From the IMG/VR virus record IMGVR_UViG_3300045988_139374, positions 160,001 through 224,000 of that record: a stretch of DNA of 64,000 nt; one strand, 5' to 3'. This DNA is from a virus. Position numbers and translations under genes: made by a program. Below the pieces are notes generated by a model. It made no database searches. It saw only the letters and a program-made list of their open reading frames with translations, and was not told the DNA's origin. Position 1 is the stretch's first letter, and every line of letters starts with the position of its first letter. Shown here in pieces: positions 1,345 to 49,881 of the stretch.

Positions 1345-1394
1345 AACTTCATAGTAATCCATATTGTGATAATGGTAGAATGGGGGTTAAAATA

Positions 1395-2218
1395 ATGGCT
1401 ACAATTAGGCAAATTAAAGTTAAAGATACATTGTATGATATTTCACCGTCTCCTAGTGGTACGCTTGATACCACTACTAAAGATAATGCATTTGCTTCTA
1501 GTGATGTTGCTCAAGCAAGTGCAACTTCTTGGACTGATGTAGCTGCTCTTGCTGCAACTGAAACTAACAAGAGCATGTTCACAAAAGCTACTCAGATGAT
1601 GAAAAATACCAGATACCTATATAATATTATTGGTACTGGTTTTAGTACTTCTAGTACTATTAAGAAAGCTATTGATGGAAAAGCAGCATCTAATCATAGT
1701 CATGATCTGAGTGCTATGATCAATGGACTTTCTGTTGGATCTGCTACTCCTCAAGATGCGGATTATTATGTGTGCCAATATGCGGGGGGGGGAACACCAC
1801 TTCCACATATCATAGAAGGCCGATGACTGCTCTTTGGGATTATATTAAGTCTAAAGGAAATAGTACTTGGCAACCTAAAGGAAGCTATGCTGCTGCAAAC
1901 CATAGTCACAATTATGCAGGATCTGGAAGTGCTGGTGGATCTGCAAATAGTGCAGTAAAGTTGGATACAGCAACTGCTGGTTCTACTACTCAACCTGTAT
2001 ACTTTAGTGGTGGTAAACCTGTAGCAATTGGATATACTATTGCTAAGAGCGTTCCTGCTGATGCTAATTTTAGTAATACTTGGCGTGGAATTCAGAATAA
2101 TCTTACTTCTACAGCAACAGATCAGTCCCTATCTGCTGCTCAGGGTAAAATTTTGAAAGATGCTCTTGATAAAAAGACTGGAGTTAGTGTATCTGGTACC
2201 ACTGTAGTATTTGGATAA
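1395..2218 (+). CDS. tail fibre protein with HxH motifs; reading frame broken at a G9 tract
   Basis: Track ORFs 1380..1826 and 1772..2218 overlap at G9 (1784-1792). The joined product reads ...YYVCQYAGGG|NTTSTYHRRP.... N-terminal ~110 aa are paralogous to 3172..4431 (FASSDVAQ, RYLYN, GTGFST, NHSH). ATG at 1395 follows GGGGG. Confidence 0.7.
1784..1792 (+). repeat. G9 homopolymer at the frame junction of the fibre gene
   Basis: Counted directly: gcGGGGGGGGGaacacc; +1 G or -2 G (or a -1 slip) fuses the two frames. Confidence 0.9.
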
Positions 2219-2276: not shown

Positions 2277-2570
2277 TCTGACGCTTCTATTAAGATCAAA
2301 ACAAAGTCTGGAAAATTTTCATATAGTAGCACTTACGGAAGAAATTATACATTTTATGATTATGAAGGAATATTTATTTCTGCATCAATTGACGGTATTG
2401 CATTTAACAATGATAATTATTTGTATAATTTGTATTATCCATCATTATATTCAATTCGTGTTAGTGATAAATATATTATTAAATCTTTCAATATTATAAG
2501 TTCTGATTCAGGAGGAAATAATATTTCTGGTATTGGAGATAATTTAAACATTATTATTTGCTATATTTAA
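2277..2570 (+). other. start-less fibre-tip-like cassette C1 (97 codons)
   Basis: Signal TGACGCTTCTATTAAG at 2279-2294. Frame TCT GAC GCT... gives SDASIKIKTKSGKF...NLNIIICYI-stop. TAA lies directly upstream in frame; no RBS or start codon. Confidence 0.6.
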
Positions 2571-2612: not shown

Positions 2613-2634
2613 GTAGAATATATTAAAATACAAT

Positions 2635-3015
2635 AATCTGACGCTATTACGAAGTAGTCTGAGAAATCTGCCAAACCTCTATAAAAGGGCCTAAAATGGG
2701 CATTTTAAGAGGGTAAAATCGAGTGATTTTACACTTATTTTCAGTACTAAAAATTCAATTCAAGATAATAAATGTTTGATCAATAATCAATCTTAATTTA
2801 AAATATATAACAATATGGTAATGAAAGATGGTAGAAAAATCTTTTACCTTTAACAGCAGACACACAAACTATCTTTCATACATGAAGCATTCGATTTAAG
2901 ATTTATTGTGAAGACCGCTTTTAAGAGAGTCCCTTGGACTATAAACTGTGAAGACTTCGTTTAAGAAAATCAGATAAATCCATATCCAAGCCATTAAATG
3001 TAGTAGCGTCAGATT
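2635..3015. repeat. 16-bp inverted repeats (variant cassette signals) bounding a 349-bp non-coding segment
   Basis: AATCTGACGCTATTAC 2635-2650 versus the reverse complement of 3000-3015 (AATCTGACGCTACTAC): 15/16 match. Confidence 0.8.
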
Positions 3016-3065
3016 AAAATTGTGAAGCCTGCTTATATAGATTTTTGTGAAGACGACGGTTAAGA
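2882..3065 (+). repeat. five direct repeats of type GTGAAGAC-N5-TTAAGA
   Basis: R0 2882-2901, R1 2908-2926, R2 2948-2966, R3 3022-3041, R4 3047-3065; R1, R2 and R4 are each exactly 19 nt (GTGAAGAC N5 TTAAGA). Confidence 0.7.
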
Positions 3066-3073
3066 TTATTACT

Positions 3074-3111
3074 CGGTGTGGTCTTTATGATCACCCCGGA
3101 ATTTCTTTTTT
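3074..3111 (+). terminator. rho-independent terminator closing the non-coding module
   Basis: CGGTGTGGTC 3074-3083 pairs with GATCACCCCG 3089-3098 (9 of 10 positions), then a T-run. Confidence 0.5.
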
Positions 3112-3171
3112 AACAAAATATCACTATAAATAGCCCAAAATGGGTAATTTTAAGAAAGGAAATTTAATTTT

Positions 3172-4431
3172 ATGGCTATAATTGATAAAATTAAGGTTGG
3201 TAGCACTACCTATGATGTGTCGCCTTCTGCTTCTGGTACTCTGAACACTACTGGCACTACTAAGTTTGCTTCTAGTGACGTTGCTCAGGGAAATGCAACT
3301 GGCTGGACTAATGTAGATCAGATGACCACTGCTGATAACCATGCTACTCTGTTTACTAAGATCACTCAGATGGCAAAGAACGTCCGCTATCTGTACAATG
3401 TTCTTGGTACTGGCTTCTCCACTGGTTCTACTGTTAAGGGTCAGATTGATGGAAAAGCAGCAGCTAATCACTCTCACAAGGTTGCTCAACTGCCTACTTC
3501 TAGTACTCAAGTTAACTCCAATGACTATATTCCTACTTCTGCTCTGATCTATTCTATGAATCAGACTCTAACTTCGCTAAATGACGCTAGTAATAAACTT
3601 GGAGTCAGGATTTATAATACTAAATATGCAGTTGGAGGTATTCCTACCAAATCCCAATTTGCTGCAACTGACACTGTACAAAGCATTATTATTAAAATGC
3701 TAGGAGATATGGGTCAGAAACCCATTGACTCTTCTACACCTAATACAAGATATAAGTCTCAGAATCTTGGTACTTGGTCTAGTGTTAGTGATGTAGATAA
3801 TTTTCTTTATAGTTGTTGTCATGATACTGGTTATTATGGTGCTACTATTGGTAGTTATGTTACGATTAAAGATGGTGTATATAATAAAGAATGGATTATT
3901 GCTGGTTTTGATTGTGAAAAGAATCATAAAGCTTCCGATGGCAATACAAAGGATAATGGATATGGTATATGCTTAATACCTAAGAAGAGCTTAGGTAATT
4001 ATGTATGGGATTCTAATTCTATTATAAATGGATACAACGGATCTGAAATGCATAAGTCTACATTACCTGTAGTTGCGAATAATCTTAGAAAAGTATTAGG
4101 AAATCATCTTGTACAGCGTAATGTCCTTCTGAGTAATGCTGTAGATTCTAACTATTATGCTAAAGGCTATTTTTGGACTACTGCATATTGTACTCTTATG
4201 AGTACAGGACAAGTAACTGGTACATTTGCTTCTAATAGAAACAAGTATGATGATGGAGAAGCTAATTATAAACTTCCTTTGTTTAATTATGAAATATGGA
4301 GTTTTGATACCTGGGCCTGGTTGCGAGGGCTATTCGGCTACGGTGTCTATGGCCTTACCACTTCTGGTGGTTCTGGTTATGACATCTGTTACGTTAGTCA
4401 CGGTCTTCGCCCGCTCATTTATATTAGGTAA
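3172..4431 (+). CDS. DGR target: tail fibre / receptor-binding protein with C-terminal variable region
   Basis: 419-aa ORF. The N-terminus is paralogous to fibre 1395..2218 and includes NHSH. The C-terminus WAWLRGLFGYGVYGLTTSGGSGYDICYVSHGLRPLIYIR-stop resembles the CLec/FGE-type VR scaffold; the VR lies within the last ~115 nt of the ORF. Confidence 0.85.
   Translation: MAIIDKIKVGSTTYDVSPSASGTLNTTGTTKFASSDVAQGNATGWTNVDQMTTADNHATLFTKITQMAKNVRYLYNVLGTGFSTGSTVKGQIDGKAAANHSHKVAQLPTSSTQVNSNDYIPTSALIYSMNQTLTSLNDASNKLGVRIYNTKYAVGGIPTKSQFAATDTVQSIIIKMLGDMGQKPIDSSTPNTRYKSQNLGTWSSVSDVDNFLYSCCHDTGYYGATIGSYVTIKDGVYNKEWIIAGFDCEKNHKASDGNTKDNGYGICLIPKKSLGNYVWDSNSIINGYNGSEMHKSTLPVVANNLRKVLGNHLVQRNVLLSNAVDSNYYAKGYFWTTAYCTLMSTGQVTGTFASNRNKYDDGEANYKLPLFNYEIWSFDTWAWLRGLFGYGVYGLTTSGGSGYDICYVSHGLRPLIYIR
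4317..4417 (+). repeat. DGR variable region (VR)
   Basis: 101 nt align to TR with 12 mismatches, every one opposite a TR adenine. Confidence 0.9.
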
Positions 4432-4456: not shown

Positions 4457-4537
4457 AGTGGAATTACCGTAATATAAATGAAAGGTGAAGGCTTAACGAG
4501 TAAATATATTATTAATATAAAATAAGAGGTGGTTTGT

Positions 4538-5347
4538 GTGTCTGTCGTTAAGGGTAAAAGAAATCAATCTGATGTTGAATATTTTGATTATGCATATAAA
4601 GTTGTGGAGCATATAACTAAATTTCTTTTATCTGATCTTGGGATTAAGAAAACTTATAGAGACTTAAAAGTTTTTACTTATAAATCTCATATGGAGGAAG
4701 CTGATAAAGAAGAATTTGAGCATTTAGTAAATAAGTATGATTTGGAATTGGAAACAGATTTTCCTAATTGGCTAATGTGCTATTATAGAGAAACATTATT
4801 AACAATCATGAGAGATCTAATCAATAATATATCTGCAGCTTATACACTATATCCAAATTCTGTTTATGAATTTAATATCAAGAAACAGTATATTTCTGAT
4901 TCTATAGCTAATTGTTTCGATTTAAAACATCAACTCCAATTAGTAATTAGAATATTTCCAGCAAATATGAAGAAATATATTCCATTTGTAAAAGAAATCG
5001 ATAAGGAAATAGAGCTTCTTAAACAGTGGCGAAAGAACTTTACAGGAATTTCTAAGAAGCATTGCTACAATCAAGATGAAATCGCTAAGAGAGATGCTAT
5101 TAAGAGAGTAAATAAGATTGAAGCAAAGAATGAGCGTAAACTTCAAGTGAACAATAATTTCCTTGTAGAATATATGAAAGCAGTTTACACTCAACAAGTG
5201 CTTATGGATAATCTATATCATACAACCTTCTATTATAATCAGCAAAATCAGTATTGCTCCGAACTGCCTATTGCAGCTTGTACATTCTTTGATCAAAATG
5301 GATATTATATTGGAGATTCTGCTCATGATTTTGTTACAACTAACTAA
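4538..5347 (+). CDS. candidate DGR accessory protein (Avd-like by position), otherwise hypothetical
   Basis: ORF lies between the target gene and TR. In-frame GTG at 4538 follows AAGAGGTGG. Predicted helical and basic. At ~270 aa it is longer than a typical Avd. Confidence 0.5.
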   Translation: MSVVKGKRNQSDVEYFDYAYKVVEHITKFLLSDLGIKKTYRDLKVFTYKSHMEEADKEEFEHLVNKYDLELETDFPNWLMCYYRETLLTIMRDLINNISAAYTLYPNSVYEFNIKKQYISDSIANCFDLKHQLQLVIRIFPANMKKYIPFVKEIDKEIELLKQWRKNFTGISKKHCYNQDEIAKRDAIKRVNKIEAKNERKLQVNNNFLVEYMKAVYTQQVLMDNLYHTTFYYNQQNQYCSELPIAACTFFDQNGYYIGDSAHDFVTTN

Positions 5348-5378: not shown

Positions 5379-5497
5379 CTGGTTGCGAGGGCTATACGGC
5401 AACAACAACCTCAACAACAACAATGTCTATGGCCTTACCACTTCTGGTGGTTCTGATTATAACAACTGTAACAATAGTAACGGTCTTCGCCCGATCA
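5379..5497 (+). repeat. DGR template region (TR)
   Basis: 119 nt, AAC/AAT-rich (WLRGLYGNNNLNNNNVYGLTTSGGSDYNNCNNSNGLRPIN in the VR frame), intergenic between avd-like gene and RT. Confidence 0.9.
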
Positions 5498-5651: not shown

Positions 5652-6938
5652 ATGATTATTGATTTTAGTAATGAAGATTGGGGCGAAAATCCCTGTGAAT
5701 ATACTGAAGGAAAATTAGATTCTATTGCAGATCCAGATAAATTATATCAATCTTATAGAAAAGCTTCTAAACCAATTTATTATAAAGCATCTACTCAAAG
5801 ATATGGATTAAATCTATTATCTAATATTGCTATTGCAAATGAAGCATTAAATAATGGATCTTATAAAATTGGAGATCCATATGAATTTATTCTCACAGAA
5901 CGCGGTAGAATTAGATATGTAAAAGCATTATATATGTTTGATCAAGTAGTGCAGAGATCTTTCAATGATAATGTATTAAATCCTGCTATTGCTAATAAGA
6001 TGATTTATGATAATGGAGCTTGTGTAAAAGGAAAAGGTGTTGCTTTTACAAGAATGAGATTTAAGCAGCATCTACAACAAGCATATTATCAATTTGGATA
6101 TGATGGTTATATAATGATCATCGATTTTTCTAAATATTTTGATAATATTCTTCATCAAGAAGCTTTAAAACAATTCGAACCTCTATTAACGCCAGAAGAA
6201 TACAATTTTCTTAAAATTACTTTTGATACATTCAAACTAGATGTATCTTATATGTCAGATGCAGAATATCTAGAAGCTAGAGATTCTCTGTTTAATCTTC
6301 TAGAATATTCTATGATGGCAAAAGAAAATTTCAAAGGATTAAAGCTTCTTGAAAAGTCTGTTGGAATTGGTAATCAAACTTCTCAAGGAACTGGAATGTA
6401 CTATCCTCATGAAATAGACAATTATGTGACTATAGTAAGAGGATATGGATTATATGGAAGGCATATGGATGATACATATGTATTTGCTAAAACTAAAGAA
6501 GAATTACAACAACTTCTTGAAGAAATAAAAGAATTGTGTAAGAATCTTGGAATTCATATTAATCTTAAGAAAACTAGAATAGAACCCATCAAGAATACAA
6601 TTTCATATCTTAAAATAAATTATAAAATTATTGAAACTGGAAGAGTATTTGAATTAGTCCCAAATAAAGTATTTAAAAGAGAAAAAGATAAATTAACAAA
6701 ATATAGGGATCTTTGCATTCAATATAAAATGACTGCTATTACAGTTCTTCAATGTTATCTTAGTTGGAGAGGTGTATATAATAAATTTGATTCTAAAAGA
6801 AAAATATATGCACTGGATTGCTATTTTAAAGATCTTTATTGTTTAGGATTTAGAGATACAAATCTATATGATTTGTTGCATTTCTATATGCGTGTAGAAA
6901 GAGAGAAATTAAATAACTATCCAGTCATGAAATATTAA
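5652..6938 (+). CDS. DGR reverse transcriptase
   Basis: IIDFSKYFDNI (motif A-like), VGIGNQTSQ (the DGR-typical [I/L]GNxxSQ), YGRHMDDTYVF (YxDD box). Confidence 0.9.
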   Translation: MIIDFSNEDWGENPCEYTEGKLDSIADPDKLYQSYRKASKPIYYKASTQRYGLNLLSNIAIANEALNNGSYKIGDPYEFILTERGRIRYVKALYMFDQVVQRSFNDNVLNPAIANKMIYDNGACVKGKGVAFTRMRFKQHLQQAYYQFGYDGYIMIIDFSKYFDNILHQEALKQFEPLLTPEEYNFLKITFDTFKLDVSYMSDAEYLEARDSLFNLLEYSMMAKENFKGLKLLEKSVGIGNQTSQGTGMYYPHEIDNYVTIVRGYGLYGRHMDDTYVFAKTKEELQQLLEEIKELCKNLGIHINLKKTRIEPIKNTISYLKINYKIIETGRVFELVPNKVFKREKDKLTKYRDLCIQYKMTAITVLQCYLSWRGVYNKFDSKRKIYALDCYFKDLYCLGFRDTNLYDLLHFYMRVEREKLNNYPVMKY

Positions 6939-7747: not shown

Positions 7748-9463
7748 ATGGAAAACAATAATGTCAATCTATCTAAATATGGATATCAAGAGCAAAGATA
7801 TCCTATTGATACTACTGGCTATAAGCAACTTCATGACTATAACATCGAGTATCAGATGGCACATCAGAAGGAGTTTAACTTCCTTCAGCCTCTTCCTAAT
7901 GATCTTATGTCTACTACTAAGACATATCCTCATTCTGATGAGTTTGAGTTTTCTGGACAGCTTGAAATCATTAATTATGATAAAGCTTGTGAAGAAGACC
8001 TTAGGGAAGGAAATGGTTTTATTGTAGAACCAGCTGGTAGAAATATCAAGAAAGATCTTCATGCTGAGGATGGTATTTTCTCTCCTAAGTTTGGACAAAC
8101 CTTGGCTGATACTAATCCTTTTATGGATCGTTATCGTTGTCGGTGTAAAGAAGGAGGGCTTCGTGGCCGTAATAATGCCGGTTTGCGTTGTCCAAAATGT
8201 GGTCATCTATGTTCTTATGTAGATGATAATTTTAATTATCGTGGATGGATTAAACTTTCTGAGCCTTATAAGTTTATTCATCCTACCTTCTACACTTATA
8301 TCGATTCTATCCTTGGTAAAGGTATCTATATCCAGGGTAATAAGCGTACTAAGCTTGAAAATATTCTTGACGTTACTGATACTCAATTGGTTCTTAATTC
8401 TATTAAGATTGATGATCCCAAACTTAAAGATGAACCGTTCTTTGGTATTGGAATGATTGCTTTTGTCGAACGCTTTGATGAGATCATGGATTATTATATC
8501 AAGAAGCGCCCTAATAAGCGTAATTATTATGATGCCATTTATCAGTCTCGTGATTCTGTATTTTCATCTTCGCTTCCTGTCATCACTACATTGCTTCGTC
8601 CGTTCGATATAGATGGCAACAACATGACCTATGAGCCAACGAATGCAATGTATACAATGATTAATAAACTTGCTACTTCTATTAATAAGAATAAAACTGC
8701 TATCCAGAGAGAACCTAAAATCAAGAACCAGCAGCTTTATAATCTTCAAAAGAAGTTTATGGAAATTTATGCTGAACAAATTTCTATTCTAGCAGGTAAG
8801 AAGGGAGATTTTAGATGTCTACTTGGTGGACGTTATAACTTCTCTTCTCGTTGTGTTATTGTTCAAAATCCTAATCTTCGTATTGATGAGATTACTATGC
8901 CTGCTGTAGCATTGACTGTTATGCTTGAGCAAAGAATTAAAAATATTCTCTGCCGTATGCATGGTATGACTCCTACACAAGCACATGATATTTGGTATAA
9001 AGCTACTATTGAGCCTAATAAACGTATAAATACCATTATTCAATCCATCATCGATGATTTTAAACACAAAGGCATGCGTGGGCTTCCGGTTATCATTGGA
9101 CGAAATCCTACACTTGCTTATGGCTCTATTCTGCAAATGTTCTGTGTTGGGATTACTGATTCTTATACCTTAGCAGTTCCTCTACAGATCTTAAAATTCT
9201 TGGCTGCTGACTTCGACGGCGACGTTATATATTGCTTGGTTCCGATGAATCAGACTTTTATTCGTCTTGCTTGGGAAAAATTCAATCCTAGGAATGCTAT
9301 GTATATTTCTAGAGATAATGGATATTTCAATCCCAATGCATTGATGCAAAGAGATACACTTATTAATGCTAATACTTTAGCAAGATTAGGAAGGGAGAAT
9401 TACACACAAGAAGATCTTAATAAGTTCGATAGAATTCAGAAAGCTATTAAAGCAGCTGGTTAA
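7748..9463 (+). CDS. multisubunit RNA polymerase beta-prime-like subunit, N-terminal fragment
   Basis: CRCKEGGLRGRNNAGLRCPKCGH (CxC...CxxC zinc ribbon); GRNPTLAYGSILQM (compare NRAPTLHRLGIQAF); LAADFDGDVIY (catalytic DFDGD at 9209-9223); only 571 aa, so a split beta-prime. Confidence 0.8.
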   Translation: MENNNVNLSKYGYQEQRYPIDTTGYKQLHDYNIEYQMAHQKEFNFLQPLPNDLMSTTKTYPHSDEFEFSGQLEIINYDKACEEDLREGNGFIVEPAGRNIKKDLHAEDGIFSPKFGQTLADTNPFMDRYRCRCKEGGLRGRNNAGLRCPKCGHLCSYVDDNFNYRGWIKLSEPYKFIHPTFYTYIDSILGKGIYIQGNKRTKLENILDVTDTQLVLNSIKIDDPKLKDEPFFGIGMIAFVERFDEIMDYYIKKRPNKRNYYDAIYQSRDSVFSSSLPVITTLLRPFDIDGNNMTYEPTNAMYTMINKLATSINKNKTAIQREPKIKNQQLYNLQKKFMEIYAEQISILAGKKGDFRCLLGGRYNFSSRCVIVQNPNLRIDEITMPAVALTVMLEQRIKNILCRMHGMTPTQAHDIWYKATIEPNKRINTIIQSIIDDFKHKGMRGLPVIIGRNPTLAYGSILQMFCVGITDSYTLAVPLQILKFLAADFDGDVIYCLVPMNQTFIRLAWEKFNPRNAMYISRDNGYFNPNALMQRDTLINANTLARLGRENYTQEDLNKFDRIQKAIKAAG

Positions 9464-9641: not shown

Positions 9642-9875
9642 TTAGATATAAAATATTCTTACATTATATTTTACTATAGAAATAAGTTGTTTATTTAGAT
9701 CGATATTAAATGTAACGATTACATAATTTAAATAATCAGGGACGTAATATATGGCAACATATGGAAATCCAGAGATTGAATTTATGTCTGCACATATTGC
9801 AGATATTACAATTATATTGTTAAATGATTTCATTTCTGAAATATACATATCTCTTTGCTTAATAGAAGCGTCATT
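9642..9875 (-). other. start-less cassette C4 (77 codons), last of the minus-strand array
   Basis: Signal at 9858-9873 (rev); NDASIKQRDMYISEM...VRIFYI-stop. Confidence 0.55.
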
Positions 9876-10168
9876 TACATATCAAAATACCAACATTTGC
9901 ATGTAATAGGATTTTTACCATCGGTATATATTTCATTATCTGCAAGCCTTCCGACTTTTGTCATATAAACTTCACAGTTAGTAACTTTAAATGTACCATC
10001 ATCAAAATATCCACTGGCAGCTATTACAGGAAATGTATAATATCCAGCATTTCCTTTTGGATATAGTATTGGCATTGCTTGAATTATATATGCTTTAGAT
10101 AAGTACCCGCATGATGCATATTCACTATATGGAACTTTACAAGTATTAGTTTTAAGAGAAGCGTCATT
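9875..10168 (-). other. start-less cassette C5 (97 codons)
   Basis: Signal at 10151-10166 (rev, TGACGCTTCTCTTAAA); NDASLKTNTCKV...KCWYFDM-stop. Confidence 0.55.
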
Positions 10169-10496
10169 GTGCTTTACCTTTAATATAAAATATATTAATG
10201 ATGACTTCTGCATTTGATAAAGATGTTTTGTTAAAAGGCATAATTTTTTCATGCAATGTATCAATACCTAGTATATATAATTTTCTGCCAGTTGTCCAAA
10301 TACCAGTATTTGGATCTTGTGTTGAATCGATACTTGTAGATAGGAAAGTTAAATACATTCTAACAGTATTACTACAATATGCATAGTGAGCTATAATATC
10401 ATCATCAGTAACAGAAATATCTGTATCAAGAATAAAATAAGAAATATCATTCTTTACTCTACCTTGCTTCATTTTAATTTTAGTAGAAGCGTCATT
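10164..10496 (-). other. start-less cassette C6 (110 codons)
   Basis: Signal at 10479-10494 (rev); NDASTKIKMKQGRV...INIFYIKGKAQ; the stop is the TGA inside the next signal. Confidence 0.55.
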
Positions 10497-10506
10497 TATA
10501 TTGGTA

Positions 10507-10767
10507 TTATAGATTTTTTAAATAAAATACAATTAATCTTCTAATAGATGAATGCATTGTTAAAGTATTATTAGGGAATCCTCTTATATCTATATAATAA
10601 CATGAATCATCTTCATCATACCATATATCTACATATTCAGCTTGCTCAGTTTTACCTGTTATTTTAGATTCAATATAAAGTCCAACAATTGGAATTCCTA
10701 AATAAAAAGCTTGTTTACTACTTTTTGGAAGAGTTAATTCTATATTATATATAATAGAAGCGTCATT
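10507..10767 (-). other. start-less cassette C7 (86 codons)
   Basis: Signal at 10750-10765 (rev); NDASIIYNIELT...LIVFYLKNL-stop. Confidence 0.55.
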
Positions 10768-11065
10768 TACCAAAATAATAATATATTTTTATATTAAATG
10801 CTGTATTTACTTTTATTAATTTATAATCATTAATTTCAAACAATTGAATTATAGAATAAAAACTACCCTTTTCATATATTCCTTGATACATTGCTGGAAA
10901 TATATACTTAGGAGAATAATTGATAGGAAATAATGTTTGATTATACGTGGTACTATACACAGCAAATATTATATATGCTGATAGCCCAGATGGCACATCA
11001 TATCTTTCTTTATATATTCCATTCTCATCAGTTGTTACATCTTTACTCTTAATAGAAGCGTCATT
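10763..11065 (-). other. start-less cassette C8 (100 codons)
   Basis: Signal at 11048-11063 (rev); NDASIKSKDVTT...IKIYYYFGK; the stop is the TGA inside the next signal. Confidence 0.55.
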
Positions 11066-11384
11066 CACTAATATAATAGTATATTTTAATACCAATTTTA
11101 TCTGATGGCTTTATAAGCTGTCCATTGTCATTTATTTTATATACTTGAATTACAATATATCTATTAACAGCATCTGCAATTTTTCCATATGAGCCAGAAT
11201 ATATTGCAGGAATTATATATATTGGAACATTCATTTGATTTACTAGATTTCCAGTCATTGTGGATGTATTACTATATATCGCTAAAATATTTTTATGAGA
11301 ACTAATTCCAAATACGCCTAATGCAATTTTATATTCTCCACTGCTATCAGTTTCCACTATTTCATGTTTAATAGAAGCGTCAGA
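11061..11384 (-). other. start-less cassette C9 (107 codons)
   Basis: Signal at 11367-11382 (rev); SDASIKHEIVET...IKIYYYISE; the stop is the TGA inside the next signal. Confidence 0.55.
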
Positions 11385-11388
11385 CTTG

Positions 11389-11673
11389 TTAAATATAATA
11401 TATAATAATTGAAACATTACGTCCATTACGAGATGCCGTGCTGCCATTAATATCTGATGTATATACAAGAATAGTTCTAATTACCCATTCAACATCTGTA
11501 GTTTTAAATATTTGAATTAATGGAATAGATGAACTGGTATTTACAGCTGGATTTATGTATGCATTTATTAAAATTCCATTAGTAAATTTATATAAGTAAT
11601 CATTGTCATTTAAACCATTTGAATATTTTCTAGGATATACGGTATCAGTTTTAATCTTAATAGAAGCGTCAAA
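11389..11673 (-). other. start-less cassette C10 (94 codons), first of the minus-strand array
   Basis: Signal at 11656-11671 (rev); FDASIKIKTDTVYPRK...VSIIIYYI-stop; no ATG/GTG/TTG in frame, so it is absent from the ORF track. Confidence 0.55.
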
Positions 11674-11704: not shown

Positions 11705-11748
11705 CTACTAATGTTACAGTCGATGGTACCACTATAGTATTTGGATAA
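11705..11748 (+). pseudogene. orphan 3' end of a tail-fibre paralog
   Basis: Encodes ...TNVTVDGTTIVFG-stop (compare ...GVSVSGTTVVFG-stop of 1395..2218); 11725-11806 matches 2195-2276 with 1 mismatch; no upstream ORF. Confidence 0.55.
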
Positions 11749-11764
11749 TAAATATTATAAATAA

Positions 11765-11806
11765 AATTCCCATAGGATTTTTATATCCTATGGGATTCTT
11801 TTATAG
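11765..11806 (+). terminator. duplicate of the fibre-gene terminator
   Basis: Same hairpin as at 2235-2267. Confidence 0.6.
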
Positions 11807-11814
11807 TCTTATAA

Positions 11815-12393
11815 TCTGACGCTACTAAGAATTTTGGAAATGGAAGTCTAATTAAATCTATTACTTATGAAGGATCCTATACTACAAGTACTGTTTATTC
11901 ATATCAAATCGATGATTGGCTAAAAGTAAATTGTACTTCTACTAATCCTATTAGAACAAAAATATCTAGATTATATGATATTGTATTTTTCTTCGATACA
12001 GATGTTGAGGAGTTAGCTATAAATATGCTTAGACATTTATTTGCTGTTGGAGCTGACTATAAGTATCTTGGTGGATTTATACTCATGAAGAAAATATCAA
12101 ATGAATGGACACCTGGTAGATCTCTTTCTCAGGCTAGCTTTGATTATTTTTTAGGCCCATATATAGAATATGGATTGGCACCTAAACAATTTGTTAAATA
12201 TCGAGTAATTAGAGAGAATAATGCATATTATATAGATAGATATGTTGATACATCAGAGAAAAACTACAAAAATGATAATATTTCCTATCAGATATTATAT
12301 AGGAATACAGAACCGCATAAATATTTAATATATGGAATAGATTTTGAAGATCATGTATCTGATGTTGTGAATAGTAAGCCAGTAGATCAGTAA
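11815..12393 (+). other. start-less large cassette C11 (192 codons)
   Basis: Variant signal TGACGCTACTAAGAAT at 11817-11832; SDATKNFGNGSLIKSITYEG... is homologous to C17; TAA directly upstream in frame. Confidence 0.55.
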
Positions 12394-12919: not shown

Positions 12920-13001
12920 GCAGGAATGGTGGAATGGCAGACACGCTAGACTTAGGATCTAGTTCTTCGGAGTGAGGGTTCAAGTCCCTTTTCCTGCACC
13001 A
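12920..13001 (+). tRNA. tRNA-Leu (anticodon TAG), class II with long variable arm, CCA encoded
   Basis: Acceptor GCAGGAA/TTCCTGC; anticodon stem CTAGA/TCTAG with loop CTTAGGA; T-arm GAGGG-TTCAAGT-CCCTT; variable hairpin TTC-TTCG-GAG. Confidence 0.85.
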
Positions 13002-13033
13002 TGTAGAATTATCTCCCCTAATTCTACTCATAA

Positions 13034-13110
13034 GGGCTATTAGCTTAGTTGGTCAGAGCTTCTGGCTCATAACCGGATGGTCGTAGGTTCGAGTCCTACA
13101 TGGCCCACCA
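13034..13110 (+). tRNA. tRNA with CAT anticodon (elongator Met or Ile2), CCA encoded
   Basis: Acceptor GGGCTAT/ATGGCCC; anticodon loop CTCATAA; T-arm GTAGG-TTCGAGT-CCTAC. Confidence 0.85.
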
Positions 13111-43610: not shown

Positions 43611-44525
43611 ATGATTGTTAATGTTATTAATGGTCAGAGCTCTGGTATCTCTGAGTCTACTGGGCCTAATGTGTTTGAAGGCATGAGCTTGGCTGAAGCA
43701 TGTGGTCAGCTGCAGGCTAACGTGTCTGATATTCTGAATGAGATGAATATGGGCATTCTGCTGAATGAGCATATGTATCTTCGTGAGAATGGTGAGGACA
43801 TCCAGTATGTGAATGAGGCAGATACTAAGCTGAAGGATCGTATTGGCGGTGCTATTGATAATATCATTAAGCAGGTTTCTCAACTGTGGGATAGACTCGT
43901 TATCTGGATTCAGGATCGAGTCGAAGATGCTCGTATGGCATTTGCTCGTGCTGGTATTGATAAGAAGAAGGCAGAAGCTGCTAAGAGTGGATCTGTTGAT
44001 AAGTGCCATGTGAAGTGGGTTGGTTCTGATAAAGTCGATAACCTCATTAAACTAATTAACGCTGGCGATGGTAACAATCTGGATGAGATTGATAAGAAAG
44101 ATTACAATATCTCTGATTGGACTGAGACTAAGGATAAGCTCACCTCTGGCGAGATCACTGATGCATATAATACTGTTTTTGATACGAATAGAACCGTTCT
44201 TGGTAAGGTTCGTGCCGCTAAGAAGACCGCTATTGATGAGCTGAATAAGCAGAAGAAGGCTGCTACTTCTAGCAATAGCGATGATAAGGCTGATCAGATT
44301 AAGAGCATCAATGCAAATTCTCGTAAGATCTCTAAGATCAGTTCCTTTGCAATGAAGGTTTATCATACTCACGTTGAAGGCAGTATTCAGGCTCTGAAGG
44401 CTGCTGTTAAGCCTGAGAAGGCTGCAAAGGCTGTTGATCGTGCTGCTAAGGTTGGCAAGAAGTCTGATAAGGAAGCAACTTCCGAGTCTGCTATCTTCAA
44501 TGACGATCGTTTCTTCAAGGCCTAA
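43611..44525 (+). CDS. internal-head-protein-like paralog 2 (codon usage suggests high expression)
   Basis: MSLAEACGQLQ..., SQLWDRLVIWI; enriched in CTG/ATC/GGC/CGT codons compared with neighbouring genes. Confidence 0.6.
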   Translation: MIVNVINGQSSGISESTGPNVFEGMSLAEACGQLQANVSDILNEMNMGILLNEHMYLRENGEDIQYVNEADTKLKDRIGGAIDNIIKQVSQLWDRLVIWIQDRVEDARMAFARAGIDKKKAEAAKSGSVDKCHVKWVGSDKVDNLIKLINAGDGNNLDEIDKKDYNISDWTETKDKLTSGEITDAYNTVFDTNRTVLGKVRAAKKTAIDELNKQKKAATSSNSDDKADQIKSINANSRKISKISSFAMKVYHTHVEGSIQALKAAVKPEKAAKAVDRAAKVGKKSDKEATSESAIFNDDRFFKA

Positions 44526-44583: not shown

Positions 44584-45447
44584 TTATGCATACTCATAAT
44601 CAGGTTCATTATATTTACTATCCCCACCATGGTTAATAATAGCTTTAAGAACTTTTGCACAAGATTTTAGATAATCTCTATATACAGAGATTTCTTCTTT
44701 ACATATTTGAGTAGCAACTTGCGCCATATGCTTAATTTCGCTATCATTGCTTGTAGTATTGTTTTCCTCTTCATTATAAAAAGGATCTATATTCTTCTGA
44801 TTTTTCATAGATTTAATATAATTATTTTTATTTTCTATAACCCCCGATACAAATTTAGATTTAGAATTAAAAATAATATTCCAAGCATTAATTCCAACTT
44901 GTTTCGTAATTTTATATTCATAATCTACACGTCTATATTTAGAAAAATATGTATGAATATCTTTATCTTTTAGATCAATATATTTATTCAATAGCCCATA
45001 GGATGCATTTTCTCTATTTCTTACTATTTTATCATACTGATCATCTGTTACAACAGTTCCTTTAATAGTAACAGTAAAATCTTCTTTCATATTATTAATT
45101 AGATTCCAAGATTTCTTTTTATCTATACCAATAGAAAGAAATTTCTTCATTACCATACTAGTGAAGTTTTGAATAAACTCAATAAACTTATCCCATAATT
45201 TAGATATTTGAGTAATGATCGATTCAATGATATTTTTAATTTTTGATCTATTTACATTATCTCCTTTATTGATAAACTCATCTTCACCATAGTGCCTAAT
45301 ATATGAACCACTGTCATCAACTTTTTCTTCATTCAATATAATATTTACATTTTCTGTAAACATATTAAATGCTTCATCTAATGTCATATTAGAGAAAGGA
45401 TTATTCAATTCAATTAAACTAGATTCACATAATACATTAATAACCAT
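44584..45447 (-). CDS. internal-head-protein-like paralog 3
   Basis: MTLDEAFNMF..., SKLWDKFIEFI; AAGGAGGA RBS on the minus strand. Confidence 0.6.
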   Translation of the reverse strand: MVINVLCESSLIELNNPFSNMTLDEAFNMFTENVNIILNEEKVDDSGSYIRHYGEDEFINKGDNVNRSKIKNIIESIITQISKLWDKFIEFIQNFTSMVMKKFLSIGIDKKKSWNLINNMKEDFTVTIKGTVVTDDQYDKIVRNRENASYGLLNKYIDLKDKDIHTYFSKYRRVDYEYKITKQVGINAWNIIFNSKSKFVSGVIENKNNYIKSMKNQKNIDPFYNEEENNTTSNDSEIKHMAQVATQICKEEISVYRDYLKSCAKVLKAIINHGGDSKYNEPDYEYA

Positions 45448-45648: not shown

Positions 45649-45879
45649 CTACAATACATACCTTCTAATGAGATACATCCATTTTTTCTGAACAGCATAA
45701 AATAATGTAGCATTCAAATTATTATAATCTCTAGCATATTCAAAATCAAAATCATATCCAATCATAGTTCCATCTATTTTATATGCATGGCCAGAGTCAT
45801 AGACACTACTACAATCATGAACTTTAGATGTATAAACATTAGTTATTTTCTTTATAGAATTATTATTAGAAGCGTCAGA
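45649..45879 (-). other. start-less cassette C12 (76 codons)
   Basis: Signal at 45862-45877 (rev, TGACGCTTCTAATAAT); SDASNNNSIKKITNVYTSK... Confidence 0.5.
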
Positions 45880-45883
45880 CTTA

Positions 45884-46117
45884 TTAAATATAGATGATGT
45901 TTGCATGACATGAAGTATTACCAGATAATGATGAACCATCGGAATAGTGATCCATATCTACGAATCTACAATATAATTTTCCATTATTTTGATAAATATA
46001 GTCTATATCACTGTATTTAATACGATCTAATATATCAAATCCTATCAATGTACCATTTAATGTATATCCATCTTTAGTAATATAAATATTACTAAGCTTT
46101 TTTATAGAAGCGTCATT
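45884..46117 (-). other. start-less cassette C13 (77 codons)
   Basis: Signal at 46100-46115 (rev); NDASIKKLSNIYITKDG...CHANIIYI-stop-stop. Confidence 0.55.
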
Positions 46118-46152: not shown

Positions 46153-46191
46153 TATAAAATTGAAATAGAAAGAAGAAAGAGTACTTCTATT
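46153..46191 (+). promoter_or_regulatory. conserved 39-nt upstream element (TATAAnAnTGA-ATAGAAG-N13-CTTCTAT)
   Basis: 35/39 identical to 47869-47907; both copies end ~30-50 nt upstream of the start codon of a plus-strand gene. Confidence 0.5.
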
Positions 46192-46240: not shown

Positions 46241-46567
46241 ATGCTGACCGAAAAAAATATTAATGATGTGGCAACGTTGAGTGTTATTGGTAACGACAAC
46301 GGCAAAGGAATCAATCCGACCGTGATCGATTATAAAATAAACAATGGAGGGTATTACGCCCTCGCATTGGTAAAGCTAAATGATGCATATACCATTTTCA
46401 ACATTGCTGGAATGGTTGCCCCTAGCGGGATACAAGCTGAAAGAGTAGGCTTGTATGTATGCAATCCTGAATGGGATTGCATAATAGATATTGTTTCCAA
46501 GAGCGAATTAATTTCTGACGAGCAGACTGCTCGTCAGAAGTTTGAAGATTACTGCAAGCTTCTATAA
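46241..46567 (+). CDS. hypothetical protein (atypical, GC-richer codons)
   Basis: 108-aa ORF, TAGGAGG RBS, strong terminator; embedded between cassettes. Confidence 0.6.
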   Translation: MLTEKNINDVATLSVIGNDNGKGINPTVIDYKINNGGYYALALVKLNDAYTIFNIAGMVAPSGIQAERVGLYVCNPEWDCIIDIVSKSELISDEQTARQKFEDYCKLL

Positions 46568-46572
46568 AGCAA

Positions 46573-46616
46573 AATGTGAGTAAGAGATATCTCTTACTCA
46601 CATTTATTTTTTTTAT
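46573..46616 (+). terminator. rho-independent terminator
   Basis: Perfect 16-bp palindrome AATGTGAGTAAGAGAT/ATCTCTTACTCACATT followed by T-run. Confidence 0.75.
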
Positions 46617-46621
46617 AATGA

Positions 46622-46879
46622 TTTGACGCTTCTATTAAGAGTACTGTAATCACAACACCTAGTGATTATTCATCTGTAGATTTTAAGCTTGGAATTCCAG
46701 TAGGCGTATTTCCATATTCATCTAGAGATATAAGCGTATATCAATTGTATGAAGTATATTATAGATATTATGATTCTACCATTATATCATTTGGAATTAG
46801 AAGTATTAATATTAAAAATAATGGAAATATAGAGTATTGTATAGGTCAGCAAATTTTAGTGTATTATATTCCAATTTGA
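46622..46879 (+). other. start-less cassette C14 (85 codons)
   Basis: Signal at 46624-46639; FDASIKSTVITTPSDY...QQILVYYIPI-stop; converges on and overlaps C15. Confidence 0.55.
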
Positions 46880-47119
46880 AATATAAAAAATATTTAAAGT
46901 TAACCCTGCAATTCTTTTAAATTTAGTAAAATCATCACCAATAGCTTGACCAACGACTATTACATAATTATCGTTATTATTTTTATATTGCATTATAAAT
47001 TGGAATCCTTCGCTTAAATCATTATTACCAATAATAGTATTAATTAAAATTTTATCTAGTGATATTGTATATCCATTTATAGAACTAATAGCTGTCATCA
47101 TTTTAATAGAAGCGTCAGA
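46856..47119 (-). other. start-less cassette C15 (87 codons)
   Basis: Signal at 47102-47117 (rev); SDASIKMMTAISSINGY...LNIFYISNWNIIH-stop. Confidence 0.55.
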
Positions 47120-47146: not shown

Positions 47147-47800
47147 ATGGGAATTATTATAAATGAAAAGTGTGTTACTTATAATAAAATTTATGATATT
47201 AAGAATACTAAAATAGATAAATATAAATTGGTTATCATTGGTGAAATACATGGATCTTCTATGATTGGGGTTTATGATAAACTTCTTAAATCTTCTCATT
47301 ATGATTACTTTCTTGCTGAATTTGCTTATGATGATAAAGCTCTTACTAGAGAAGATATTAAATATAAAATGGATCATGCTACTAATGGTGGAATGGGTCC
47401 GTGTGATTATCAATATAATTATTGGCTTTATGAATTAGCATATAAATATAATATTCCTTTGATTGGTATTGATAGAGGAGATACTAATAGTTTTAAATCT
47501 AGAGAAGAAGAATTTAAAACTAGAGAATCTATTATGATCAATACTATTCAACAATATTCAGGAAAAGGAAGATGCTTAGTGCAAATAGGAGATGCTCATG
47601 TAAGAAATATTCCTATTAGTAAAGAATATATTAAGCAATATAATTATGATGATGAATTCTACGAAGGAAATATTGATAATCAAACAGTATCTTTTGCAAG
47701 TCCAATATATGAAAAATATGTAAATGATCCAAATGCAATTATATTTAGAAATAAAAAAGAATATGAAGATGAACAAAAATTTTTAAAAGAAAATTCATAA
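47147..47800 (+). CDS. hypothetical protein, possible ChaN/Tiki-like fold
   Basis: AAAGGAGG RBS; IIGEIHGS and QIGDAHV motifs; weak call. Confidence 0.5.
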   Translation: MGIIINEKCVTYNKIYDIKNTKIDKYKLVIIGEIHGSSMIGVYDKLLKSSHYDYFLAEFAYDDKALTREDIKYKMDHATNGGMGPCDYQYNYWLYELAYKYNIPLIGIDRGDTNSFKSREEEFKTRESIMINTIQQYSGKGRCLVQIGDAHVRNIPISKEYIKQYNYDDEFYEGNIDNQTVSFASPIYEKYVNDPNAIIFRNKKEYEDEQKFLKENS

Positions 47801-47801
47801 A

Positions 47802-47845
47802 GATAGAGGTAGAGTATTTTTACTCTACCTCTATTATATTTTAAT
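47802..47845 (+). terminator. rho-independent terminator
   Basis: ATAGAGGTAGAGTA pairs with TACTCTACCTCTAT. Confidence 0.6.
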
Positions 47846-47868
47846 TATTGTACTAAATAAATATATAA

Positions 47869-47907
47869 TATAATAATGAGATAGAAGGAAGAAAGAGTAC
47901 TTCTATT
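47869..47907 (+). promoter_or_regulatory. second copy of the conserved 39-nt upstream element
   Basis: See 46153-46191. Confidence 0.5.
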
Positions 47908-48756: not shown

Positions 48757-48797
48757 GGAGTGGGTTCCATTCGCCCACTCCTTTTATTTTTTTTTTC
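48757..48797 (+). terminator. rho-independent terminator (near-identical to 1286..1325)
   Basis: GGAGTGG 48757-48763 pairs with CCACTCC 48775-48781, followed by T-run. Confidence 0.7.
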
Positions 48798-48821
48798 AAA
48801 AAGTAGATTAAAATACAATAA

Positions 48822-49115
48822 TCTGACGCTTCTATTAAGTACATAGATATTTCATTACATCTAAAGAGTAGTATATCATATGAACATAACATATCATCAA
48901 ATCCTATTATATCTATTATAGGAGTTTTTACAAATATTAGTAATTGTATTCCAATACTTAATAATCTATCTTTTGAAGAAAAAATTGATTCTAATGATAA
49001 CTTAGTCGAATTCCAAGTAATTGACTATAATTTATATACTATAAGTAGTGGAAAATTAATATTAACAAAAGTATCTGGATATGTTACTATATTTTATATT
49101 GAACCTTCCAATTAA
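48822..49115 (+). other. start-less cassette C16 (97 codons)
   Basis: Signal at 48824-48839, directly after the promoter-like box; SDASIKYIDISLHLK...YVTIFYIEPSN-stop. Confidence 0.55.
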
Positions 49116-49119
49116 ATAA

Positions 49120-49626
49120 TCTGACGCTTCTAAGAATTTTGGAAATGGAAGTTTTATTAAATCCATTACTTATGAAGGATATTATACAATTAGTGATAAA
49201 TATATAAACCATATGAGTTCAGATACTTGTATTAGAACTACTGTATCTAAAATGTATGATGTTGTGTTATTCGCTGAATTAGAAACTACAAACAATACTT
49301 TATTAGCTGAGCAAAATCCATATGTTAAAGTATTTCAAAATATTATCAAAGGTTCATTTGCTGGATATGTATTTATGAATTTAATGCCTACATCTTGGAA
49401 GATTTTATATAATAATACTTCTAGCAATGATTTTATTGGGCCATATGTTGAATATGATCATTGTCCTACAAGTGGTGTAGTAGCTAGAAGAAATAGATTA
49501 TCCATAGAAAGATACTGTGCAAAGTATACTAACAATATGGATTATCAATTATTAGCTAGACAAGGCATTAGATATGATGTATATGGTCTAATGCTTAGAG
49601 ATGAAATTGCTAATCTATTTAGATAA
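49120..49626 (+). other. start-less large cassette C17 (168 codons)
   Basis: Signal at 49122-49137; SDASKNFGNGSFIKSITYEG... is homologous to C11. Confidence 0.55.
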
Positions 49627-49627
49627 G

Positions 49628-49881
49628 TATGACGCTTCTATCAAGCGAACTGTTGTTACTCTTAAATATAATAATACCGAAGTAGGATGTAAATTTACAT
49701 TAGGAGCTCCAGTTGGAGGATATATACTTACAGAAATTAATAGCTGGATTGTAATACGTATGGATAAAAATATGAATATTCTATATTTGGAATTTATGTT
49801 CGTACTTGGTTAGGTGACGGATTAATTGAAAAAATTCAATATATAGATAATTATTATAAAGCTACTATATTTTACATTTAA
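49628..49881 (+). pseudogene. frameshifted cassette C18
   Basis: Signal at 49630-49645; YDASIKRTVVTL... stops at TAG 49811-49813, while ...YYKATIFYI-stop lies in another frame; one extra A in the A5 run at ~49766-49770 would fuse them. Confidence 0.5.

Follow-up and report, generated by a model that had tools for sequence, protein, structure and literature searches.

The 64,000-nucleotide (nt) stretch studied here, which we call the window, spans positions 160,001 to 224,000 of the IMG/VR virus record IMGVR_UViG_3300045988_139374. We propose, with a probability of roughly 70%, that silent tip cassettes and a mobile module of promoter and first exon in this DNA form a system for site-specific switching of the C-terminus of a tail-fibre-like protein. 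The cassettes are start-less gene fragments, each headed by a short recombination signal, and the module carries the single constant N-terminal exon. Natural fusions join this exon to differing cassettes, the module stands in varied positions in related phages, one pair of assemblies differs by a precise signal-to-signal deletion, and one contig holds the module closed on itself. A preliminary description of the window, made from the letters alone, had singled out one convergent pair of cassettes, C14 and C15, as resembling the invertible G segment of phage Mu. Throughout, L-numbers denote nucleotide assemblies or contigs compared with the window and P-numbers denote database proteins or clusters. 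The phage genome is about 260 kb, and the sequence covered here is about 74 kb, that is, the window and the 10 kb to its left.

A store of silent cassettes

The signal that heads each cassette is no chance repeat. Its 14-mer, at up to three mismatches, occurs 29 times in the window against 8.8 ± 2.7 times in shuffles, and the 15 copies with at most two mismatches all start with GACGC. Every one of these 15 opens 60–167 codons in the frame that reads D-A-S-I-K, while the other two frames close within 27 codons save for a single case of 72; once the cassette DNA is shuffled, just 0.6% of positions give 60 open codons or more. GACGCT is rare in the window, and nearly every copy of it is a signal.

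The window contains 17 start-less cassettes. Their frames have neither start codons nor ribosome-binding sites (RBSs), several contain no Met at all, and most end in a hydrophobic strand of the form ..(I/V)x(F/Y)Y(I). Frames kept open without starts or RBSs argue that these are gene fragments held intact by selection. They are placed as follows.

2280..2570, plus strand: silent cassette directly after the terminator of a fibre gene; its homologue in P0014 (73% identity) is fused to the constant exon
9642..11670, minus strand: tandem array of seven silent cassettes, signals at 9872, 10165, 10493, 10764, 11062, 11381 and 11670
11818..12393, plus strand: large cassette of 191 codons with the signal variant GACGCTACTAAGAA, a paralogue of 49123..49626
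45649..46114, minus strand: two tandem silent cassettes, signals at 46114 and 45876
46625..46879, plus strand: C14, silent start-less C-terminal cassette of 84 codons without Met, DASIK...VYYIPI and stop
47116..46856, minus strand: C15, silent start-less C-terminal cassette of 86 codons, DASIKMM...NWNIIH and stop
48825..49813, plus strand: three tandem silent cassettes, signals at 48825, 49123 and 49631

We rejected the idea that the cassettes are independent small genes: C14, 2280 and 11670 lack Met, in-frame stops lie one or two codons before the signal, and no Shine-Dalgarno sequence is present.

A constant exon with many natural partners

One gene of the window joins a constant N-terminus to a cassette. 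GACGCT at 3583 lies in frame at codon 138 of the normal gene 3172..4431, where the first 137 codons give way to DASNK and a 277-residue domain.

3172..3582, plus strand: constant N-terminal exon, 137 codons, ending ...IPTSALIYSMNQTLTSLN
3583..4431, plus strand: expressed cassette, DASNK..., diversified by a diversity-generating retroelement (DGR), with its variable region (VR) at 4317-4417

When the 137-residue N-terminus was searched against 5.8 billion proteins, 79 matches were found. Some 55 cluster representatives of 205–244 residues have an N-terminus 80–99% identical to that of the window, and after ...SLN they continue into DAS[ILTV]K and a differing cassette of 70–105 residues that ends in ..YYI. 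Distant lineages, with N-termini about 51–55% identical, diverge immediately after ...SLNDA. Fused homologues exist for window cassettes 2280, 10165, 10493, 46114 and C15; those of cassette 46114 are in P0021, P0058, P0061, P0063 and P0066 (58–64% identity), and P0047, in which a cassette joins the constant N-terminus at residue 137, has a cassette part 54% identical to C15. Because the same N-terminus carries differing cassettes in these natural fusions, the cassettes are alternative C-termini of one protein. Trans-splicing or an intron was rejected as the route to such proteins, for Rfam gives only two transfer RNAs (tRNAs) and the fusions are present in DNA, which makes an RNA mechanism needless.

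Over 108 residues the constant exon has 58% identity with the N-terminus encoded by the adjacent fibre gene (1380..2218), a gene with Phage_fiber_rpt. In P0068 the first ~45 residues match the fibre-gene N-terminus and the remainder is constant exon, a chimera from which it follows that the paralogous N-termini also recombine by ordinary homology. In an AlphaFold2 model of P0047 (mean predicted local distance difference test score, pLDDT, 62) a helix at residues 121–137 stops exactly at the junction and beta strands follow. A neck-and-head receptor-binding protein would fit this predicted fold, the fibre-like N-terminus and the targeting by a DGR.

The fibre gene itself is split by a run of nine G (1784-1792) into the open reading frames (ORFs) 1380..1826 and 1772..2218. 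The run is G8 in L033 and G9 in L035 and L036, and G10 or G7 would rejoin the frame; its length could reflect slipped-strand phase variation, programmed frameshifting or homopolymer error. Translational bypass from the GGA-TAA end of this gene was considered and rejected, there being no matching landing codon before the in-frame TAA at 2274-2276. A 97-nt direct duplication (2183-2279 and 11713-11809, 93% identity) takes in the end of the gene, namely its last 12 codons and terminator hairpin, and has a signal after each copy; unequal recombination between signals seems to have left it as a scar. It is this duplication that makes contig L036 break at 2275, and the break is thus no sign of heterogeneity.

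A mobile promoter and first exon

The constant exon belongs to an expression module, E, of 944 bp (window 2640-3588), which comprises the promoter and the N-terminal exon and has GACGCT at both ends. Its parts besides the exon are these.

2639..2669, plus strand: E-left, TGACGCT ATTACGAAGTAGTCTGAGAAATC, non-coding
2670..3171, plus strand: E body, non-coding, with hairpins, repeats, a decayed core and an RBS
3561..3588, plus strand: E-right, arm TCAGACTCTAACTTCGCTAAAT and core GACGCT, the arm being an imperfect inverted copy of the E-left arm

E-left is invariant in 12 modules, including that of the distant relative L070. The body contains two terminator-like hairpins (~2711-2734 and ~3074-3099), four TGTGAAG(A/C)C repeats between 2900 and 3070, three of them followed by TTAAGA, and, at 3001-3019, a decayed core in inverted orientation (AGCGTCA at 3005-3011). 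The repeats and the decayed core are kept in most modules and could be accessory binding sites or an internal switch.

Window positions 2634-3588 recur in relatives at 94–96% identity, with both borders exactly at GACGCT and the right one reading ...ACTTCGCTAAAT-GACGCT. The module occupies at least five different slots.

Before the DGR cassette: window, L055-58
Among the tandem cassettes beside the RNA polymerase gene, pointing the same way as they do: L075
Following the large cassette close to the tRNAs: L074
In the cluster that holds C14 and C15: L060, L065, L073
Next to DHFR and ThyA genes: L053, L054, L061

In L060 it directly follows a homologue of cassette 49123. The window and IMG/VR contig 125976 each contain a single E-left site and a single constant exon.

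These slots bear on gene conversion, in which silent cassettes would be copied into one unchanging expression site, as happens in pilE/pilS or vlsE. Start-less arrayed cassettes, some of them opposite to the expressed gene, are what such a mechanism would use. The expression site, however, is found in at least five slots and is not fixed, the expressed cassette of L075 sits in its ordinary array place, and beyond ..YYI the cassettes have no conserved 3' homology block. We consider gene conversion scarcely credible.

One contig catches the module closed on itself. L076, a MEGAHIT contig of 1085 nt, begins and ends with exactly the same 141 nt, a length that matches the assembler's k, and consists of the module alone, joined at one GACGCT: ...ACTTCGCTAAAT-GACGCT-ATTACGAAG. 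Just 7 nt are common at this junction, so the 141-mers that span it come from real molecules, and L076 is a 944-bp circle or a head-to-tail tandem. The protein end that the closed unit encodes, ...SLNDAITK and a stop, forms two separate database clusters, P0034 and P0068. Among IMG/VR genomes no E-right/E-left junction was found, and the left-end site occurs once per contig.

A short core with one conserved arm

A logo of 102 distinct silent sites has conserved T(-1), GACGCT, TCT, A, and AA at +12/+13 (T-GACGCT-TCTAnnAA); as GACGCT was the search pattern, the flanking positions alone are informative. The sites are asymmetric, with core and 3' arm conserved and a 5' flank that is merely A/T-rich. 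At fusion junctions the sequence after GACGCT varies with the partner (TCTATT, AGTAAT, TTATCT, TTGTTT). Since both flanks vary between sites, exchange must take place within (T)GACGCT. About 7 bp is the size of a tyrosine recombinase overlap region.

The closed module has a more elaborate junction, in which GACGCT lies between inverted arms: the left one is TCAGACT[CTA]ACTTCG[C]TAA and the right one its reverse complement. Aligned as a dyad, the junction scores 13, where shuffles give 7.0 ± 1.4 (p ~2e-4), whereas silent cassette sites have no dyad and score 5–7, the shuffle mean, and no inverted repeat or hairpin occurs at cassette borders. The two-armed module junction and the cassette sites thereby resemble a full site and its half-conserved partner sites, as in attP/attB and attI/attC.

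Might there be no dedicated machinery, the DASIK linker being a hotspot of general or short-homology recombination during co-infection and the cassettes debris or spare parts? Every difference that we describe is between samples, the phage encodes RusA, and the P0068 chimera attests to ordinary homologous recombination. Yet only 7–16 nt are common at breakpoints, too short for efficient homologous exchange, and 15 of 15 cassette frames stay open. The sites are also fixed at synonymous positions against codon bias: GAC makes up 10% of the phage's Asp codons yet stands in all 15 signals, and TCG, 1.3% of Ser codons, is fixed in the site. A non-coding site of 30 nt does not vary between lineages with only 51% identity in their N-termini, dyad arms are present at the circle junction, and a recombinase keeps its place beside the system. 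On balance we give this explanation little chance.

The C14/C15 pair and its locus

C14 and C15 converge and overlap by 24 nt (46856-46879). The C14 frame is open from the GAC at 46625 to its stop at 46877-46879, and the minus-strand frame of C15 from 47116 to its stop at 46856-46858. Both start at inverted copies of T-GACGCT-TCTATTAA, which agree at 15 of 16 positions (consensus TGACGCTTCTATTAA(G/A)).

46624-46639, plus strand: C14 recombination signal, TGACGCTTCTATTAAG; T-GACGCT-TCTATTAAG
47102-47117, minus strand: C15 recombination signal, reverse complement TGACGCTTCTATTAAA; T-GACGCT-TCTATTAAA

Coordinates and translations agree with the preliminary description on the convergent pair, its 3' overlap and its inverted bounding signals. 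The flanks that it named are both seen in the sequence: to the left, a terminator hairpin (46572-46605); to the right, gene 47147..47800 with its RBS and ATG. It was right as well that inversion here alone gives no fusion, as neither flank has a promoter or a constant exon, and that inverted signals bracket gene 46241..46567: a third signal at 46101-46114 (minus strand, one mismatch) and the one at 46625 (plus strand). Its statement that no constant part is visible does not stand, for the constant exon is in the window at 3172-3582, 43 kb away. Its view of the 0.5-kb segment as an invertible unit finds no support: the orientation of C14/C15 is identical in all seven covering assemblies (at least six samples, up to 3% diverged), with no hint of local flipping. 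The likeness that it drew to the Mu G and P1 C segments holds for the convergent variable exons and inverted recombination sites, and breaks down over the asymmetric sites, the events between direct sites and the failure to find a serine invertase among the scanned window ORFs and in the 10 kb left of the window. The structure that it picked out is thus real and relevant, and its reading is partly supported, having missed the constant exon and chosen the wrong mechanistic family.

C14 is kept as a silent frame, 98.8–100% conserved, in seven assemblies. Separately, contig L032 (Logan ERR414328) has its left end at window 47095, 8 nt past the C15 signal, which could be a branch from an alternative junction in that sample or low coverage.

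Relatives show how a convergent pair of this kind is used. In L060 a C15-like cassette (plus) and a "TLYSVK" cassette (minus) converge directly left of a 217-residue gene homologue that is 84% identical to window 47155-47848, and the C15-type cassette has the slot and orientation opposite to those in the window. In L073 the constant exon is fused to the left pair member, with the start of the 217-residue gene after the pair, and in L065 it is fused to the right member. Both members of the convergent pair are therefore used at this locus, and the pair geometry stressed in the preliminary description does matter. Between L073 and L065 the orientation of the pair relative to its flanks is unchanged and the constant exon switches side. 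The expressed cassette appears to be changed mostly by movement of the constant exon and not by inversion of the pair.

The same locus is where frequent flipping of the 0.5-kb C14/C15 segment, as a Gin/Cin-type invertible unit, has to be judged. The inverted 16-nt signals around a convergent pair would suit it, as would the reversed C15-type cassette of L060 relative to the 217-residue gene and the expression of both members of such a pair in L073 and L065. We nevertheless regard it as very unlikely: one orientation is found in seven of seven assemblies, the flip would have no effect between flanks that lack promoter and constant exon, no serine invertase was detected in the scanned window ORFs and the 10 kb to the left, dyad symmetry is absent from the cassette sites, and between L073 and L065 it is the exon that changes side.

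Deletions, inversions and swaps among relatives

L049 equals L047 minus 735 nt, or two cassettes, and the junction falls inside a common 17-nt signal, tctGACGCTTCTATTAA. Strains 94–98% identical to the window swap cassettes, with breakpoints at signals or no more than 30 nt from them. The orientation of cassette arrays differs among relatives, and a single inversion between signals 927(-) and 5451(+) would be enough to turn L060 into L065.

A pure shufflon of nested inversions, in which the exon relocates through large inversions and L076 is a tandem duplication, would account for the mixed-orientation arrays, for that single inversion, and for asymmetric sites that resemble sfx in having a core and one conserved arm. 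It does not readily account for the left border of the module, which is always its own GACGCT, an outcome that inversions at the right site only would not give. In L075, moreover, the module stands in direct orientation in a tandem array between cassettes that are adjacent in L058; the L047/L049 deletion lies precisely between direct signals; and an E-right/E-left junction exists. Inversion as the only operation is therefore unlikely.

A candidate recombinase beside the first cluster

A 329-residue Xer-like tyrosine recombinase is encoded 34-1023 nt left of the window, beside cassette cluster 1. Its best NCBIfam models are XerA, XerC and XerD, all under the family cut-offs, and among solved structures the nearest are P. 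abyssi XerA and E. coli XerD, IntI4 (PDB 2a3v) being more distant; the integron integrase model TIGR02249 matches with E = 1.4e-28, and models of this kind stay far under their cut-offs (100 bits against 265). The catalytic R, K, HxxR, H and Y are present in the protein. Its position about 2.3 kb upstream of the first cassette is kept in six relatives (L055, L058, L077-L080), and the distance to the module is 1 kb in the remote relative L070, whose N-terminus is 51% and recombinase 62% identical.

Of the 54 window ORFs with 70 residues or more, 42 were scanned against Pfam, with no other site-specific recombinase and no serine invertase or resolvase among them, and precomputed Pfam tags for the 10 kb left of the window likewise gave no other site-specific recombinase and no resolvase. 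What these scans and tags contain is a Phage_integrase-type protein, RusA and helix-turn-helix (HTH) proteins. The Xer-like recombinase is likely the enzyme of the cassette system.

Eight tandem repeats of about 63 residues (KASDYILSELEKRGIN...) lie immediately downstream of a recombinase and gyrase A in the distant jumbo phage L081 (L081:11226-14000). We rejected them as a second cassette array, for they are a protein repeat inside a 924-residue helicase-like ORF.

A second diversifier on the expressed cassette

The window has a complete, classical DGR, with its VR, a template repeat (TR) at 5379-5497, a reverse transcriptase (RT) at 5652-6938 and an accessory ORF at 4529-5347; in the 74-nt TR/VR block, 8 of 8 mismatches fall at TR adenines. 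Its target is the cassette now fused to the constant exon. In L047-49, L077, L079 and L080 the DGR cassette is start-less, without an N-terminus ahead, and is preceded by ...aatctGACGCT. The DGR is a second diversifier that acts on one cassette only and does not explain the signals. We accordingly dismissed the reverse transcriptase as a part of the cassette mechanism, since it belongs to the classical DGR.

Proposed mechanism

We picture the system as follows. C14 and C15 are two of some 17 silent cassettes without promoter or start, each of which would encode an alternative beta-rich C-terminal "head" of 60–190 residues. The cassette directly downstream of the module, here the DGR cassette 3583-4431, would be translated as an in-frame fusion, ...TSLN|DAS.... 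Core recombination between the two direct sites of the module would free a circle with inverted binding arms around GACGCT, and this circle could re-insert at any cassette signal. Recombination between direct cassette signals would delete or insert blocks of cassettes, and between inverted signals it would invert the intervening DNA. A convergent pair such as C14/C15 would offer two docking points, one at each end. The catalyst would most likely be the phage's Xer-like tyrosine recombinase. In its fullest form this model has a 944-bp first exon that roams by minicircle excision and Xer-like re-insertion before any of 20–30 start-less head cassettes spread over more than 100 kb, one of them hypermutated by the DGR; we would put that full version at somewhat less than an even chance.

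Several observations weigh against C-terminus switching as we describe it. All the variation is between assemblies from different samples, so that switching inside one lineage is something we infer. L076 could be a genomic tandem duplication and not a free circle. C14 has no homologue fused to the constant exon among the data compared, and its single orientation with C15 in seven of seven assemblies means that inversion between silent cassettes must be rare. A recombinase 63% identical to ours lies beside gyrase in L081 with no cassettes within 10 kb; the primary role of the enzyme may be elsewhere, for example in resolving replication products, and another recombinase may be encoded in the remainder of the ~260-kb genome. 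For the fused protein no Pfam, PHROG or PDB relative was found, and the case for receptor binding consists of N-terminal homology, DGR targeting and a low-confidence model.

Genomic setting and scope of the searches

The window is AT-rich (~32% GC). By its split multisubunit RNA polymerase gene (7748-9463), a 3432-residue protein with lysozyme and CHAP domains, and several virion proteins, it looks like part of a jumbo phage. Identical and near-identical contigs come from human-gut metagenomes, and the relatives' contigs are 240–270 kb long. The host is probably a Firmicute of the gut with low GC. To the right of the window, extension reached one contig of 4.9 kb only. An exact 16-mer signal scan of IMG/VR gave 29 loci, of which 27 are single chance matches and only L011 and L028 are relatives, and the matches of a cassette-profile search are only ORF calls of about 100 residues from close strains. 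In the INPHARED phage collection nothing matched at the DNA level, and the one protein match, to Roseburia phage Jekyll, was weak.

Genes for tRNA-Leu(TAG) and tRNA-Met (12920-13110) adjoin cassette cluster 1 on its right. The left border of the cluster that contains C14 and C15 is formed by two convergent paralogous genes, 43611-44525 (plus, 304 residues) and 44584-45447 (minus, 287 residues), with N-terminal halves alike. Within that cluster, the ordinary genes 46241.. and 47937.. each have a 20-nt motif, ATAGAA(A/G)GAAGAAAGAGTAC, some 55 nt ahead of them (46165-46184 and 47881-47900); the window has just these two copies of the motif, which may serve as a phage promoter or operator. A further element, tttttttcaaaaagtagattaaaat, follows terminators at 1316-1345, ahead of the fibre gene, and at 48785-48815, ahead of cassette 48825; E-left is preceded by a looser variant, tttttgtaga..attaaaatacaataatct (2613-2639), and contigs L032 and L034 terminate in an element of this type. 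It may be a promoter.

Significance

The store is large, with about 17 alternative tips in 64 kb, more elsewhere in the genome, and more than 50 tips on the same N-terminus across public metagenomes. What changes position is the promoter with the first exon, and cassette store and DGR are two diversifiers on one protein. If our reading is true, this is an integron turned inside out, with the promoter mobile and the cassettes stationary, and one viral protein would combine combinatorial with mutational host-range switching. It would help to explain how a gut jumbo phage keeps pace with variable hosts, and would explain the assembly breaks around the module. A compact pair of recombinase and site, with a core of 7 bp, could then serve in phage host-range engineering or as DNA shuffling tools.

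Comparison with known systems

Full-text literature searches found no phage system of this kind described. Known fibre switching by DNA rearrangement in phages Mu, P1 and p15B involves two to six variants and serine invertases. We class the system described here with shufflons, integrons and vsa, as C-terminus swapping in a phage, and not with G segments of the Gin type.

In the Mu G, P1 C, e14 P and p15B Min systems a serine invertase acts at symmetric crossover sites about 26 bp long, with an enhancer and Fis, and the segment abuts the constant part and carries a chaperone gene. Our system has in common with them a constant 5' and alternative 3' fibre parts, convergent variable exons and presumed host-range switching. 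The serine invertase, the symmetric sites, the enhancer with Fis and the abutting, chaperone-bearing segment were not found in the sequence scanned here: in the window 43 kb separate the pair from the constant part, although the homologous pair does abut it in L065 and L073.

Nearer in organization are the surface-protein loci of mycoplasmas. In Mycoplasma vsa (HvsR) the expression site takes in the 5' coding part as well, and the recombination site, short and conserved, is located within coding sequence. In vpma of M. agalactiae a Xer-like tyrosine recombinase, Xer1, is encoded beside a locus with one promoter-bearing expression site and silent genes (PMC2268961). A Xer-like enzyme encoded nearby, one expression site and silent genes that start at a short conserved site are found here too. 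In contrast to those cellular systems, each confined to one locus and to inversion, this one belongs to a phage and has at least three clusters more than 40 kb apart, and its expression unit is bounded by two direct sites and seen as a circle or tandem junction.

The R64/IncI shufflon (Rci, sfx, pilV) undergoes inversions only, in one contiguous segment (PMC11852207, PMC5430464). It resembles our system in its constant N-terminus with swappable C-termini, its convergent ORF pairs with inverted sites and its asymmetric sites, a short core with one conserved arm, as in the logo of 102 sites; a tyrosine recombinase would be a further likeness if the candidate enzyme is the one at work here. It differs in that ours has deletion between direct sites, relocation of the module, mostly tandem arrays and clusters more than 40 kb apart, and in that the candidate recombinase here is Xer-like and not of the Rci family.

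In Campylobacter fetus sap, rearrangement is RecA-dependent, uses conserved 5' regions of about 600 bp and proceeds by inversion only. A single promoter moved before one of several silent homologues is common to both systems; RecA, the long 5' regions and the restriction to inversion set sap apart.

Integrons, finally, have a fixed promoter and moving cassettes that are complete genes, with folded attC hairpins. Like them, our system has promoter-less tandem cassettes, proposed excision as a circle with site-specific re-insertion, and a candidate recombinase that is distantly similar. Here, by contrast, it is the promoter and first exon that are seen to move, the cassettes are start-less in-frame gene fragments, and the sites are about 16 bp long without a hairpin.

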